Below are positions 14,157 to 29,543 of a stretch of 34,646 bases of DNA, in pieces. The DNA lies in assembly GCA_035260865.1 (NCBI GenBank), contig DATFUK010000336.1, positions 1-34,646 of the forward strand. Direction: 5' to 3'. The DNA comes from Candidatus Methylomirabilota bacterium. GTDB taxonomy: Bacteria; Methylomirabilota; Methylomirabilia; Rokubacteriales; CSP1-6. Each line of letters opens with the position of its first letter. The first letter of the stretch is position 1. The notes beneath the pieces are model-generated. The model saw nothing but the letters and a program-made list of their open reading frames with translations, was not told the origin of the DNA and did not search any database. The position numbers and the translations under genes were made by a program.

Positions 14157-15047
14157 TCAGGCCGGCTTGACGTGGTCGCGTCCTTCCCAGGTGAGCTGCT
14201 CGAGTGGGACCTCCGCCTCGGTGCCGTCCGGGAAGCCGACGACCACCGACTGCTTCAGCACCCGCAGCGACCGCACCTTGCCGGTCATGCAGCCGCCCCC
14301 GCCGCAATCCGCGGAGCAGGCGGTGTTCACGCGCGGCAGCCGCGAGCGCAGCTCCTCGTAGGTCGAGAACTCGTAGAGCAGGCAGCACTTGAGCCGCCCG
14401 CAATTGCCGAGGAGCCGGCTGTCGGTGAGCGGCATGTCCTGGGCCTTGGCCATCTTCACCGAGATCGGGTCGAACTTGCGGAGGTGTGAGGAGCAGCAGA
14501 GCTGCCGGCCGCAGGGGCCGATGCCGTCGAGCATCTTGGTGGTGTCGCGCGCCCCGATCTGGCGCATCTCGATCCGCGCGTGGAACTCGCGGGCGAGGTC
14601 GCGCACGAGGTCGCGGAAGTCCACCCGCTCCTCCGAGTTGAAGAAGACGGTGACCCGGCGGCGCGAGGCCTCGATCTCCACGTCCACGATCTTCATGGCG
14701 AGCGCGCGCGCGCGGGCCATCCGCTGGCACGTCTCCACACCGCGCACCTCGCGCGCCCGGCGGTCGCGCCACTCGCCCGCCTCCGCGGTGGTGGCGCGCC
14801 GGACCACGCGGCGGTAGACGCGGTCGCGCTTGAAGGCGGGCAGCGCGCGCTTGGGGCGGCGCACCTCGCCCACCGCGCTGCCCCCGCCCATGTCCACCAC
14901 CACGAGGTCGCCCACGTGGAGATCGGTGTCGGTGGTCAGGTGGTCCTCGGCCAGGAGCGGCTCGCGCAGCCGCACCCCGATCAGGTACTGCGGCGTCTCC
15001 TCGGCCACCGAGGCGGCGGTCGCGGCGGGCTCGAGCGGCTCGGTCAT
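14157..15047 (-). CDS. ricT: PSP1-domain protein (RicT/YaaT-like)
   Basis: PSP1 core (VFFNSEERVDFRDLVRDLAREF...IEMRQIG.RD) with Cys clusters GPCGRQLCC and CGRLKCC. It occupies the conserved position after holB. Confidence 0.85.
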   Translation of the reverse strand: MTEPLEPAATAASVAEETPQYLIGVRLREPLLAEDHLTTDTDLHVGDLVVVDMGGGSAVGEVRRPKRALPAFKRDRVYRRVVRRATTAEAGEWRDRRAREVRGVETCQRMARARALAMKIVDVEIEASRRRVTVFFNSEERVDFRDLVRDLAREFHARIEMRQIGARDTTKMLDGIGPCGRQLCCSSHLRKFDPISVKMAKAQDMPLTDSRLLGNCGRLKCCLLYEFSTYEELRSRLPRVNTACSADCGGGGCMTGKVRSLRVLKQSVVVGFPDGTEAEVPLEQLTWEGRDHVKPA

Positions 15048-17652: not shown

Positions 17653-18473
17653 CGGCCCCGCCGCCGCTCGACGCGCCGCGCCACCGCCCAGTAGCGGAGC
17701 GCGGGCGGCACCAGCGGGAGGCCGCCGCGCGTGGCGGCGGCGAGGCCCCGCATCACGCGCTCGCGCCGGCCGTCCCAGGAGAAACCGTAGGCCGCGCGGA
17801 GCGCGGGGGGCAGCAGACCGACGGCCGGCAGCGCGGCCAGCCAGAGCGCGGGCCGGACGACGGCCGGCGCGGGTGGCCGAATGATCTCCCGGGAGAGCCG
17901 ACGGGCCGTGTCGGTCACCTCGATCACGCCCCCGCCGAGCATCGCGTCCAGGTACTCGCGGAGCCGGCCCTCCGTTCGCGGCAGCCGGCCCGGCGGGATC
18001 CCGAGCGCCGACTCGATGCCACCGGCCTCCTCGCAGTAGCGATCGGCCTCCGCGGGGCTGACCGGCCCCACGAAGAGCCGATACGTCAGCAGGAACGACT
18101 CGACCAGGGTCGCGTGCACCCAGGTGAGCAGCTCGGGATCGTGGGCGCTGTACGCGGCCCCGCCCGCCGACTCGTCGAGCCGCCCGTGGACCCGGTCGTG
18201 GATGGCGTTGATCCGGGCGGCGGCGCGGGCCGCCTCGTCCGCCGAGCCGAAGGTCAGCGCGAGCATCGCGGAAATCGTCCGGTGCAGGCGCCGGAACCGC
18301 CCCCAGCGGTCGGTCGTGAACCCGCTGTGCTCGGCCACCCCGCGCGCCACCTTCGGGTGCGCGATCTGGAGCAGGATGGCCCGGCCCCAGCCGGCCAGGA
18401 GCACCCGCTCCCGGTGGATCTTCCAGGCCATGCCACCCCCGACAAAAGCCTCGGCGGAGATCGACCCGGGCAT
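17649..18473 (-). CDS. MpaB/DUF2236 family oxygenase-like protein (track ORF trimmed to ATG 18473; alternative start 18431)
   Basis: WKIHRERVLLAGWGRAILLQIAHPKVARGV...INAIHDRVHG is typical of DUF2236. Confidence 0.75.
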   Translation of the reverse strand: MPGSISAEAFVGGGMAWKIHRERVLLAGWGRAILLQIAHPKVARGVAEHSGFTTDRWGRFRRLHRTISAMLALTFGSADEAARAAARINAIHDRVHGRLDESAGGAAYSAHDPELLTWVHATLVESFLLTYRLFVGPVSPAEADRYCEEAGGIESALGIPPGRLPRTEGRLREYLDAMLGGGVIEVTDTARRLSREIIRPPAPAVVRPALWLAALPAVGLLPPALRAAYGFSWDGRRERVMRGLAAATRGGLPLVPPALRYWAVARRVERRRGR

Positions 18474-18560
18474 GCGAGCATTATGCGCGTGGCCCGGAAA
18501 CTTCGGGAGCCCGTCGCCCGTTCTCTGAGAGTCACCCACTATCGTGGAAAGGAGCACGCC

Positions 18561-19112
18561 ATGCGTCGCATGACCCTGCTGCTGCTCGCGACCCTGCTGC
18601 TGGCCGCCGTCGGCCTCGGCGCGGCCGGCCCGGCCGCCGCCCTGGAAGTCGGCCAGAAGGCGCCCGATTTCACCTTGCCCGGTCCCGGTAACAAGCCCGT
18701 GAAGCTGTCCGAATTGACCGCCAAGGGTCCGGTGGTCGTCTTCACCTTCATCCAGGCGTTCACCAGCACCTGAAGCAAGGAGCTCCTCGGCTTCGAGGAG
18801 AGCCTGCCCAAGTTCACCGCCGCCGGGGCCCAGGTCGTGGGCGTGAGCGCCGACCACGCGGCCACGCTCGAGGCCTTCACCAAGCAGAACAAGATCAACT
18901 ACCTCCTGCTGTCCGACTTCCGCCGCGCGATGCTACCCGGGTACGACGCGCTGGTCACCGACGAGAAGAGCCCGATCTTCCGCTACGCCAAGCGCGCCTA
19001 CTACGTCATCGACAAGAACGGCGTGGTCCGGTACATGAAGGTCATGGAGAACCCGCTCGACCTGCTGGAGCCGGCCGACGTGCTGAAGGCGCTCAAGGAC
19101 GCGGGCGTGTGA
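18561..19112 (+). CDS. AhpC/TSA-family peroxiredoxin with in-frame TGA (18771-18773) read as selenocysteine; N-terminal signal peptide; 183 aa
   Basis: Track ORFs 18114..18773 and 18837..19112 share a frame. Read-through gives VVVFTFIQAFTST-U-SKELLGFEES...GVSADH...LLSDF, the Prx active-site layout with U at the peroxidatic Cys. GGAAAGGAG lies 6 nt upstream of ATG 18561. A hairpin follows the TGA. Confidence 0.8.
18779..18804 (+). promoter_or_regulatory. Putative bacterial SECIS hairpin for the peroxiredoxin UGA
   Basis: 7-bp stem CUCCUCG/CGAGGAG (18783-18789 and 18794-18800) with a GCUU loop at 18790-18793. There are 2 further GC pairs beyond a 2x2 internal loop. The loop starts 17 nt after the UGA. 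Confidence 0.55.
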
Positions 19113-19663
19113 GCACGCGCCCATTCGCCGCATCCATCCTGATCGCGGCGGCGCTCTGGGCCGGGGCCGCGGCGGCGCAGCCCGCCGCCGCGCCGCCGGC
19201 CTGGGCGAAGCTTGGCGTCCAGCCCTACGAATCGCCCAAGCCCGCCCCGGCCTTCGCGCTGCCCGCGCTCGACGGGCGCACCGTGCGGCTCGAGGATCAG
19301 AAGGGCAAAGCGCTGCTGCTCTTCTTCTGGGCCACCTGGTGACCGACCTGCCGGGAGGAGTTACCTTCCGTCAATCGGTTGTACGAGGAATTCAAGGGCC
19401 AGGGGCTCGAAGTCTTGCTGATCAGCTTTCGCGAGAGCGCGGATCTCGTGAAGCGCACGGTGGCCGAGCGCGGCTACACCGCGCCGGTGCTGCTCGACGC
19501 CTCGGGTGACGTCACCGGCCGGGCCTACGGCGTCTTCGGGCCGCCCACCGTCTACCTGGTGGACCGCGAGGGGCGGCTGGTCGGCCGGATGATCGGCGGC
19601 GGCGACTGGAGCGGCGCCACCGCGCGCGAGGTCATCCGCGGCTTCGTCGCGCCCAAGCGCTGA
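19109..19663 (+). CDS. TlpA/ResA-like thioredoxin-fold thiol:disulfide oxidoreductase with in-frame TGA (19340-19342) read as selenocysteine (UxxC motif); signal peptide; 184 aa
   Basis: Track ORFs 19109..19342 and 19379..19663 share a frame. Read-through gives LLLFFWATW-U-PTC-REELPSVNRLYEEFKGQGLEVL, the canonical WCxxC redox motif with U in the first position. The GTG start overlaps the upstream stop by 4 nt. Confidence 0.8.
19352..19370 (+). promoter_or_regulatory. Putative bacterial SECIS hairpin for the TlpA-like UGA
   Basis: 7-bp stem CGGGAGG/CCUUCCG (one G-U pair) with an AGUUA loop at 19359-19363. The loop starts 17 nt after the UGA, the same spacing as in the neighbouring gene. Confidence 0.5.
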
Positions 19664-19667
19664 CCGG

Positions 19668-20240
19668 CTAGCTGCGGCCGGCGGCCAGTGGGGGCGGGCC
19701 CGCCTGGTCGCGGGCGTGGATCGCCATCGCGACGAGCGCGCCCACCAGATCGCCGAGGCCGGCGCGCGCGGCCGGGTCGGCGAGCTTGCCGTCCTGGAAG
19801 TGACCGGACTCCAGGTACACGCTGGTCGGCACCACCCGCGCCCCGAACCACGCGAGCACCGCGCGGAGCTGCCAGTCCACCCCCAGGTAGTGATGGAGCG
19901 TCGCGCCCATCGCCACGATGCCCACCGGCTTGGCCCGCAGCGCCTCCACCGGCGTGAGATCGAGCAGGTTCTTGAGCGCGCCGGTGAACGAGGCGCGGTA
20001 GACGGGGCTCGCGAGCAGGACCGCGTCGGCCTCGGCGATCGCGCCGACGACCCGCGCGGTGTCGTCGGGGTAGCGGTCGAGCGCGCGCCCGTCCGCGAAG
20101 GAGACGCGATGCTCGCCCAGGCTCAGCACGGTGGCGGCGACCGCCGGCTGCTCGGCCGCGCGATCGGCCGCGAAGCGCACCGCCGCGTCGAGACGCCCGG
20201 GCGGCGTCACCGCGCCCACCACCGCCAGGACCCGGGTCAC
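19668..20240 (-). CDS. NADPH-dependent FMN reductase (SsuE-like), 190 aa
   Basis: ASPVYRASFTGALKNLLDL closely matches the SsuE-family motif. GTGA overlap with the upstream monooxygenase stop. Confidence 0.8.
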   Translation of the reverse strand: MTRVLAVVGAVTPPGRLDAAVRFAADRAAEQPAVAATVLSLGEHRVSFADGRALDRYPDDTARVVGAIAEADAVLLASPVYRASFTGALKNLLDLTPVEALRAKPVGIVAMGATLHHYLGVDWQLRAVLAWFGARVVPTSVYLESGHFQDGKLADPAARAGLGDLVGALVAMAIHARDQAGPPPLAAGRS

Positions 20241-28864: not shown

Positions 28865-29509
28865 TCAGCGCTTGGCCGGCTCGGGCTGGGGCGTGAGGCG
28901 CAGGTACGGCTTGAGCGCGCGCCAGCCCCTCGGGAACTTCGCCCGCGCCTCCTCGTCGGTGACCGCGGGCACGATGATCACGTCCTCGCCCGGCCTCCAG
29001 TTCACCGGGGTCGCGACGCGATGTCCGTCGGTGAGCTGCAGCGAATCGATCACGCGCAGGATCTCGTCGAAGTTGCGGCCGGTGGTCTGGGGATACGTGA
29101 TGAACAGGCGGATCTTCTTCTTGGGATCGATCACGAACACGGTGCGGACGGTGTAGACCTCGTCGTGGGCGGGATGGATCATGCCGTAGAGGCTGGCCAC
29201 CTTGCGGTCCGGATCGGCGATGATCGGGAAGTCCACCGCGTAGCCCTGCGTCTCCTTGATGTCGGCGAGCCAGCCCTGGTGCGACGTGACCGGATCGATC
29301 GAGAGGCCGATCGCCTTGACCCCGCGCCGCTCGAACTCGGGCCGGAGGCGCGCGACGTAGCCGAGCTCGGTCGTGCACACCGGCGTGAAGTCGCGCGGGT
29401 GGGAGAAGAGGACCGCCCAGCTGTCGCCGAGCCAGTCGTGGAAGCTGACGGGGCCGGCGGTGGTCTCGGCCTGGAAATCGGGAGCGGTGTCGCCTAGTCG
29501 CAGGGTCAT
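28865..29509 (-). CDS. 1-Cys peroxiredoxin (Prx6 type), 214 aa
   Basis: LFSHPRDFTPVCTTELG active site and a Prx6-type C-terminal extension. AAGGAGA lies 7 nt upstream of ATG 29509. Confidence 0.9.
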   Translation of the reverse strand: MTLRLGDTAPDFQAETTAGPVSFHDWLGDSWAVLFSHPRDFTPVCTTELGYVARLRPEFERRGVKAIGLSIDPVTSHQGWLADIKETQGYAVDFPIIADPDRKVASLYGMIHPAHDEVYTVRTVFVIDPKKKIRLFITYPQTTGRNFDEILRVIDSLQLTDGHRVATPVNWRPGEDVIIVPAVTDEEARAKFPRGWRALKPYLRLTPQPEPAKR

Positions 29510-29543
29510 GGTCGTGTCTCCTTGTCGGTTCGGGTTGTCGGGG

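Follow-up and report, generated by a model that had tools for sequence, protein, structure and literature searches.

Peroxiredoxins (Prx) with selenocysteine (Sec, U) in the active site, known since 2001, rank among the most common predicted selenoproteins of bacteria. Two established selenoprotein families are relevant here, namely Sec-Prx, with a TxxU active site, and the Prx-like proteins, with a UxxC active site: the Sargasso Sea data yielded 43 Prx and 22 Prx-like members (PMC1088965), and the Global Ocean Sampling data 253 Prx and 225 Prx-like 1 sequences, together with a few reads featuring two neighbouring selenoprotein genes, one of them a Prx/Prx-like 2 pair (PMC2398784). A comparative survey of bacterial genomes recorded Sec-Prx in 78 organisms (PMC5029168). 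A functional coupling between proteins of related kinds is described for the envelope of Caulobacter crescentus, where a pathway runs from ScsB through TlpA to PprX, with TlpA reducing the periplasmic peroxiredoxin PprX (PMC3322552). Here, we analyze a contig of a Candidatus Methylomirabilota bacterium (DATFUK010000336.1 of assembly GCA_035260865.1; positions 1–34,646 of the forward strand, the whole stretch of 34,646 nucleotides being termed the window) that codes for a peroxiredoxin (gene 1) and, overlapping its end, a TlpA/ResA-like thiol:disulfide oxidoreductase (gene 2). Each gene is interrupted by a single in-frame TGA at the position of a catalytic Cys. We interpret both as intact selenoprotein genes in which this UGA is read as Sec, and assign this reading a probability of about 0.88.

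The frame extending from 18561 to 19112 contains only one internal stop, the TGA at 18771–18773, before its terminal TGA. The open reading frames (ORFs) delimited at 18114..18773 and 18837..19112 are mechanical ORFs sharing this frame, and the true start of the peroxiredoxin gene is the ATG at 18561. When U is entered as Cys, the translated protein matches the complete AhpC-TSA profile (PF00578, profile positions 1–124 of 124, E = 2.7e-29) over residues 30–159, such that the domain spans the TGA; the Redoxin profile PF08534 likewise matches. The top solved relatives are archaeal Bcp/PrxQ proteins, first 2ywn (E = 1.2e-27) and then 3hjp and 2cx3. In the alignment, the TGA coincides with the peroxidatic Cys of 2ywn (AAFTQVC-TKE) and 2cx3 (AAFSPVC-TKE); 3hjp displays a Ser in this column. 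The active-site motif reads FIQAFTST-U-SKE, a TxxU motif with the Thr at −3 from U in place (F-T-S-T-U). The catalytic Arg is also retained, with KRAYYVID in the window protein aligned with KRA(V)FVID of the solved relatives. Hence, gene 1 combines the three features by which the Sec-Prx family is defined, i.e., the PF00578 domain, the TxxU motif and the Sec/Cys pair. No Cys is found 5′ of the U, and there is hence no CxxU motif; indeed, the mature peroxiredoxin is devoid of Cys in 24 of 24 sequences.

We then collected orthologs from 23 loci, all from distinct metagenome-assembled genomes (MAGs) in a search limited to one genome per species, at 58–90% identity. These are labelled Methylomirabilota, Rokubacteria or NC10, bar three labelled "uncultured bacterium" and one labelled "Candidatus Acidoferrum". 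The latter, L001 (DASQAL010000178.1, Candidatus Acidoferrum sp., Acidobacteriota), is the closest locus of all, with 90% identity in both genes, and its label may stem from a binning error or from transfer. TGA occupies the peroxidatic column in 24 of 24 sequences (the window and its 23 orthologs, which are not independent of each other), and, this codon apart, the 23 orthologs run to their normal end free of stops and frameshifts. In pairwise comparisons of the 23 orthologs with the window, the ratio of nonsynonymous to synonymous substitution rates (dN/dS) was 0.07–0.36 over the 43 codons 5′ of the TGA and 0.25–0.66 over the 112 codons 3′ of it. As dN/dS remains below 1 past the TGA, the 3′ part of the gene is translated and constrained. 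Outside the ortholog set, Cys takes the place of the TGA in the close homologs P0009, P0012 and P0013, and TGT or TGC does so in 58 of 60 more distant homologs. On this evidence, the TGA of the peroxiredoxin gene very probably codes for Sec.

An initial annotation, made by a model from the letters of the window, had proposed a single AhpC/TSA peroxiredoxin split by a TGA exactly at the peroxidatic Cys and hence a probable Sec peroxiredoxin. Our analysis agrees: the gene is a single frame yielding the peptide noted there, and the TGA sits at the peroxidatic Cys of 2ywn and 2cx3. The alignment with homologs that it suggested as a check shows Cys or Sec in this column and conservation of the protein 3′ of it, and its argument that coding quality continues undiminished past the stop, as not expected of a pseudogene, is sustained by the intact orthologs and their dN/dS. 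It had also anticipated that standard gene callers would report fragments. This is what public databases contain: C-terminal fragments of 102–113 amino acids (aa), some of them named "redoxin domain-containing protein", account for over 100 of the 120 best clusters matching the peroxiredoxin. Thus, as regards annotation, the peroxiredoxins of an entire clade from soil and groundwater have been mis-called.

Active-site TGA codons were additionally seen among the distant homologs (L071:208-603, L075:10016-10405 and L068:10010-10516). Two distant homologs from Leptolinea (Chloroflexota) feature the canonical PLAWTPI-U, and one Acidiferrales gene features W-U-PYC. These Leptolinea and Acidiferrales genes are independent Sec forms from other phyla.

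Gene 2, which the initial annotation had overlooked, begins with a GTG and likewise contains one in-frame TGA. Its product, a protein of the thioredoxin fold, matches PF00578 (E = 1.7e-27) and also PF08534, while the NCBIfam ResA and TlpA models score 99.5 and 71.6 bits, each under its cut-off. In the alignments, the TGA falls on the first Cys of the motif in both 3kcm (WCPPC) and the ResA structure 4nmu (WCKPC), and it is kept in 22 of 22 sequences. The protein has a single Cys, that of the UxxC motif. A version of gene 2 with the TGA at the same place adjoins the peroxiredoxin gene in 21 of the 23 loci; as for the two loci lacking the pairing, the contig ends in L015, and in L020 a paralogous W-[stop]-GC gene lies at another site. 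The remaining neighbours vary between the ten loci compared, and the conserved unit is therefore the pair of the peroxiredoxin and gene 2. The L020 paralog (L020:4373-4705, from a Rokubacteria MAG) is a TlpA-like gene whose active-site motif is interrupted by an in-frame stop (WGSW-[stop]-GCR), which suggests that the phylum has more selenoproteins of the UxxC type.

To describe the RNA structures past the two TGA codons, we used the criteria for the bacterial Sec insertion sequence (bSECIS) given in a 2026 review (PMC13188914, Fig. 2A), here coded for contiguous stems: a loop of 3–9 nt, an upper stem of 4–16 bp, a G within the first two positions of the loop, a UGA–loop distance of 16–37 nt and a minimum free energy (MFE) of at most −7.5 kcal/mol. 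Gene 2 passes the strict criteria in 21 of 22 sequences, always with a spacing of 16 and the loop AG(U/G)U(A/G). All 22 sequences retain the six core pairs of the stem and the AGUUR loop, with compensatory changes from G-C to A-U in L010 and from A-U to G-C in L011. The positions of the stem pair in 96.8% of cases, versus 54–67% with slid partners. Codon choice in the hairpin is likewise skewed: its Leu codon is TTA or TTG in 21 of 22 sequences, versus 3.8% elsewhere in these genes, and its Pro codon is CCT in 21 of 22, versus 7.6% elsewhere. Moreover, the 51 nt past the gene-2 UGA, when compared with synonymous recodings, gave a mean z of −1.46, with control segments ranging from −0.57 to +0.11; taken over both genes, the 12 control offsets span −0.57 to +0.52. 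The gene-2 hairpin is a textbook bacterial SECIS.

In gene 1, the window displays a hairpin, CUCCUCG-GCUU-CGAGGAG (18783–18800), which opens at the 10th nt past the TGA. It has an energy of −10.6 kcal/mol, a UGA–loop distance of 16 nt and a G at loop position 1, in agreement with all the bSECIS criteria, and both the window and L001 adopt it as their MFE structure. The initial annotation, which had described this 7-bp, GCUU-looped hairpin as consistent with a bacterial SECIS, is thus correct on its presence. It had also named a lack of conservation of the hairpin in orthologs carrying the TGA as a point that would refute Sec, and taken literally this is what is seen: the GCUU hairpin itself recurs just in L001 and L002, and a different, covarying helix is found in the same region of other orthologs. 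In 17 of these, the MFE structure is a different long hairpin with a 9-bp outer helix formed by alignment columns 18–26 and 44–52. This majority helix is 92.6% paired, shows compensatory changes at 5 pairs and lies above all 500 shuffles and the slid controls. Still other hairpins are found in L019, L021 and L022. In the alignment of window positions 18771–18836 with the 23 orthologs, the majority helix and the GCUU hairpin are mutually exclusive. The window sequence breaks three consecutive pairs of the majority helix, and a fold enforcing the remaining pairs of this helix reaches −17.7 kcal/mol, versus −25.8 kcal/mol with the GCUU hairpin. As the majority of orthologs have a different covarying helix, the gene-1 SECIS has probably been replaced within the family, with the window belonging to a small clade that features the GCUU hairpin. 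The loss of the latter elsewhere does not refute Sec, because the other orthologs carry the covarying helix and local structure is under selection. Consistently, the 51 nt past the gene-1 UGA fold more stably than their synonymous recodings do, at a mean z of −1.75 and with p ≤ 0.05 in 58% of the orthologs, versus mean z values of −0.46 to +0.52 for six control segments of the gene; within gene 1, such extra stability is seen solely directly past the UGA. The strength of the TGA observation, nevertheless, lies in the comparative data and not in the hairpin.

Table 1. Features of the two-gene locus, with positions numbered along the window.
Feature	Position	Strand	Basis
Shine-Dalgarno-like AGGAG, 6 nt 5′ of the peroxiredoxin ATG	18550..18554	+	sequence read directly
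Gene 1: peroxiredoxin, AhpC/TSA, Bcp/PrxQ-like; 183 codons, proposed Sec at codon 71	18561..19112	+	single-frame reading
Predicted N-terminal signal peptide of the peroxiredoxin, MRRMTLLLLATLLLAAVGLGAAGPAAA, cut before LEVGQ	18561..18641	+	inferred from N-terminal sequence
In-frame TGA (codon 71), proposed Sec at the peroxidatic position	18771..18773	+	ortholog and structure alignment
Gene-1 candidate SECIS: upper stem of 7 bp (18783–18789/18794–18800), loop GCUU (18790–18793)	18778..18805	+	
Gene-1 candidate SECIS: lower stem of 3 bp	18778–18780/18803–18805	+	
Gene 2: TlpA/ResA-like thiol:disulfide oxidoreductase; 184 codons, proposed Sec at codon 78, FFWATW-U-PTC (UxxC)	19109..19663	+	
Terminal TGA (stop) of the peroxiredoxin gene, overlapping the GTG of gene 2 (GTGTGA, 4-nt overlap)	19110..19112	+	
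In-frame TGA of gene 2, proposed Sec at the first Cys of CxxC	19340..19342	+	structure and ortholog alignment
Gene-2 SECIS hairpin CGGGAGG-AGUUA-CCUUCCG, 7 bp, UGA–loop spacing 16 nt, −9.3 kcal/mol	19352..19370	+	

The N-termini of the two proteins offer clues regarding their location. In both, one or two charged residues, a hydrophobic stretch and an Ala-rich end precede the conserved domain. In the peroxiredoxin, MRRMTLLLLATLLLAAVGLGAAGPAAA with its AxA-type end is followed by LEVGQ, and gene 2 has a comparable signal-peptide-like N-terminus. Similar N-termini are visible in the peroxiredoxin orthologs, and the solved cytoplasmic Bcp homologs begin at the EIGE/EVGQ motif. These features indicate that both proteins are probably exported. 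The arrangement of the genes suggests that 18561–19663 is a two-gene, translationally coupled operon for two selenoproteins; a scan of 18300–19900 found no promoters or terminators.

Taken together, these observations lead us to propose the following model. In each mRNA, one UGA would be recoded as Sec via SelB and tRNA-Sec, guided by a stem-loop with its apical loop 16 nt past the UGA, and the other UGAs, including the peroxiredoxin's own stop, would terminate translation as usual. Given that the mature peroxiredoxin has no Cys, Sec71 would be its sole redox-active residue. The two proteins would then constitute an extracytoplasmic peroxide-reduction relay: peroxide would turn Prx-Se− into Prx-SeOH, which the UxxC protein might resolve by a mixed Se–Se or Se–S bond, thereafter closing an internal selenenylsulfide, and a CcdA/DsbD-type membrane reductant, encoded elsewhere, could re-reduce the UxxC protein. 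We see about an even chance that the peroxiredoxin and the TlpA-like protein form such a redox pair, judging from their sequences and gene order. Two comparisons support the pairing. One is the Caulobacter pathway from TlpA to PprX. The other is a Cys-type homolog on a contig of 54% G+C (L083:317-1286), followed by an exported thioredoxin with WCPTC, which is the sulfur version of a peroxiredoxin-plus-reductant pair. More tentatively, the system might constitute a conserved, exported two-selenoprotein module of Methylomirabilota for the detoxification of peroxide, in which a 1-Sec peroxiredoxin devoid of Cys and a TlpA-like UxxC reductase dedicated to it would operate in the cell envelope by diselenide/selenenylsulfide cycling, with the SECIS replaced within one of the two families.

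A number of observations weigh against this picture, some bearing on the partnership and others on Sec itself. Regarding the partnership, the case for export and for the coupling of the two proteins is drawn from N-terminal sequence and gene adjacency, and no conserved third gene coding for a CcdA/DsbD/ScsB-type donor lies beside the pair in the ten loci. The TlpA-like selenoprotein could instead serve another envelope role, such as the maturation of cytochrome c or of copper centres, without being the redox partner of the peroxiredoxin; relatives of the TlpA/ResA/CcmG type have such roles, going by the names of the PDB and NCBIfam matches. We consider this explanation less likely than the redox pair, though more probable than the other alternatives: the two genes are adjacent in 21 of 23 loci, with a 4-nt overlap, while the other neighbours vary, and the peroxiredoxin lacks a resolving Cys in 24 of 24 sequences. 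The WCPTC neighbour in L083 and the TlpA–PprX precedent also favour the redox pair over it.

Regarding Sec, ARAGORN predicted no tRNA for the window, nor did any tRNA-Sec turn up in the 23 ortholog loci, and Pfam scans of the window ORFs, including 20 further ORFs, recovered no SelA, SelB or SelD; in these scans the other window ORFs are ordinary housekeeping genes. In the active site, the canonical Pro of PxxxTxxC is missing from the peroxiredoxin throughout the clade (FIQAFTSTU in the window), and the Thr at −3 is replaced in four orthologs, by Ala in L005 and L007 and by Asn in L019 and L022. Among peroxiredoxins, a missing motif Pro together with a variable Thr is uncommon, and the fact that Sec is already deprotonated may make it tolerable. 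As for the gene-1 RNA, the compliant GCUU hairpin is confined to the window, L001 and L002, and taken alone its z of −1.37 against dinucleotide shuffles is not beyond chance. The consensus G is absent from the apical loop of the majority helix, and a strict bSECIS-type scan of these sequences returned no compliant hairpin. The bSECIS criteria are also passed at 17.9% of codon positions in other window genes, though a spacing of 16 combined with −9.3 kcal/mol or lower occurs at only 0.6% of control codon positions, and a compliant hairpin follows the Cys codon in only 1 of 60 distant homologs. Finally, Rfam gave no matches across the whole window at gathering thresholds.

Some of these points would fit a scenario in which UGA is read through at both sites without Sec, for example by near-cognate insertion of Trp or Cys with stimulation by the hairpins, as the scans of the window and the ortholog loci turned up no Sec machinery and the majority structure of gene 1 falls outside the canonical SECIS loop rule. 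We hold this to be very improbable. The recoded sites coincide with the catalytic Cys column in two unrelated motifs, which is the signature of a Sec/Cys pair, and the gene-2 hairpin fits the SelB-type consensus, with a 5-nt loop containing G-U, a spacing of 16 nt and fixed rare codons. Insertion of Trp at the peroxidatic site would abolish activity, which is hard to square with the purifying selection on the gene. Further, the phylum has been described as rich in selenoproteins: PMC13188914 cites Deng et al. (2026) for a Methylomirabilota MAG with 63 predicted selenoprotein genes, and Sec-containing Group 4 hydrogenases have been reported from Methylomirabilota (PMC13582414). We therefore retain Sec as the preferred decoding of both UGA codons.

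A genome-wide reassignment of TGA to Trp or Gly (code 4 or 25) would be in line with a set of public "full-length" entries on short JGI contigs that display W or G at the Sec column (P0002–P0008, P0010 and P0011). Several of these same entries, however, overrun the true TGA stop into junk tails, as does P0012, a true Cys form, apparently because the gene caller applied code 4 or 25. Reassignment is effectively refuted by the genes themselves: TGA terminates 23 of the 24 peroxiredoxin genes and most window genes, long window genes such as those for the Lhr helicase (1414 aa) and MetG (633 aa) have no internal TGA, and the genome has 72% G+C, unlike the known lineages with code 4 or 25. A window-wide scan for coding-flanked TGA returned only the peroxiredoxin site and an ordinary gene junction, that of PSP1 and MetG. 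At the latter, the TGA at 14157–14159 (− strand) was considered as a read-through candidate and rejected; it ends a PSP1-domain gene in frame with MetG 21 nt downstream, and these are two ordinary genes. Lastly, a pseudogene or assembly error, i.e., a nonsense mutation in a former Cys peroxiredoxin, as might be surmised from the C-terminal fragment that is all callers and public annotation provide, is refuted by the same TGA in 24 of 24 independent assemblies from different species, the intact frames with dN/dS below 1 past it, the selected RNA structure directly following it and the same pattern in the neighbouring gene.

Elsewhere, the window codes for an ordinary Cys peroxiredoxin (28865–29512, − strand) with the motif DFTPVCTTE and a TGA stop, which scores 226.8 bits with the NCBIfam model PRK13189 (cut-off 211). 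The organism, therefore, holds both Cys- and Sec-type peroxiredoxins.

These findings do not overturn current understanding and would not surprise a specialist. They add two selenoproteins to a phylum reported to be rich in them and hint at a selenium-based peroxide defence outside the cytoplasm. The peroxiredoxin family also provides a clean comparative case of a SECIS swapped while the protein is conserved and, if this holds true, a natural system for the study of SECIS turnover under coding constraint.

Compared with the known systems, the window peroxiredoxin shares with the Sec-Prx family (PF00578, TxxU) the AhpC/TSA domain, the Sec at the peroxidatic site, the Thr at −3 and a SECIS directly 3′ in the coding region, and in both instances Cys homologs are far more numerous. 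It differs in being probably exported, in being free of Cys and in belonging to a Bcp/PrxQ-like subfamily so far seen in Methylomirabilota only; it further lacks the Pro of PxxxTxxU (FIQAFTxTU) and reaches the cut-off of no NCBIfam model. It is arguably a new exported subfamily within the known Sec-Prx kind. With PrxU of Eubacterium acidaminophilum (NF040737), a Sec-peroxiredoxin shown experimentally, it shares the Sec in place of the peroxidatic Cys, but it scores merely 32.2 bits with that model (cut-off 270), which, at 233 positions, is longer. PrxU is cytoplasmic and of the AhpC/Prx1 type, unlike the Bcp/PrxQ-like window protein with its signal-peptide-like N-terminus. The score with the Prx-SUH model (NF045827) is 33.2 bits against a cut-off of 298, and neither protein of the pair reaches the cut-off of any NCBIfam model, the WAxxUGC selenoprotein model included. 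The archaeal Bcp/PrxQ structures (2ywn/4g2e, 3hjp and 2cx3; E-values from 1e-27 to 2.5e-24) align in the peroxidatic column, the Thr and the Arg of KRA(V/Y)FVID; in contrast to the window peroxiredoxin, they are cytoplasmic and Cys-based and keep the Pro of PxxxTxxC.

Gene 2 resembles the Prx-like 1 family (PF00578, UxxC) in its PF00578 and PF08534 matches and in the Sec that comes first in UxxC; it differs in being nearest to ResA/TlpA and in its fixed operonic position 3′ of a Sec-Prx. For the pair as a whole, the closest parallel is the ScsB–TlpA–PprX system of Caulobacter, which joins the periplasmic, thioredoxin-like TlpA with a periplasmic peroxiredoxin for the reduction of peroxide in the envelope, as is proposed for the window pair. 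The Caulobacter system relies on Cys at every step and its membrane electron donor is identified, whereas the window pair has a proposed Sec at both active sites and no linked donor. If our model is correct, the pair would represent an all-selenium counterpart of the Caulobacter TlpA–PprX pathway.

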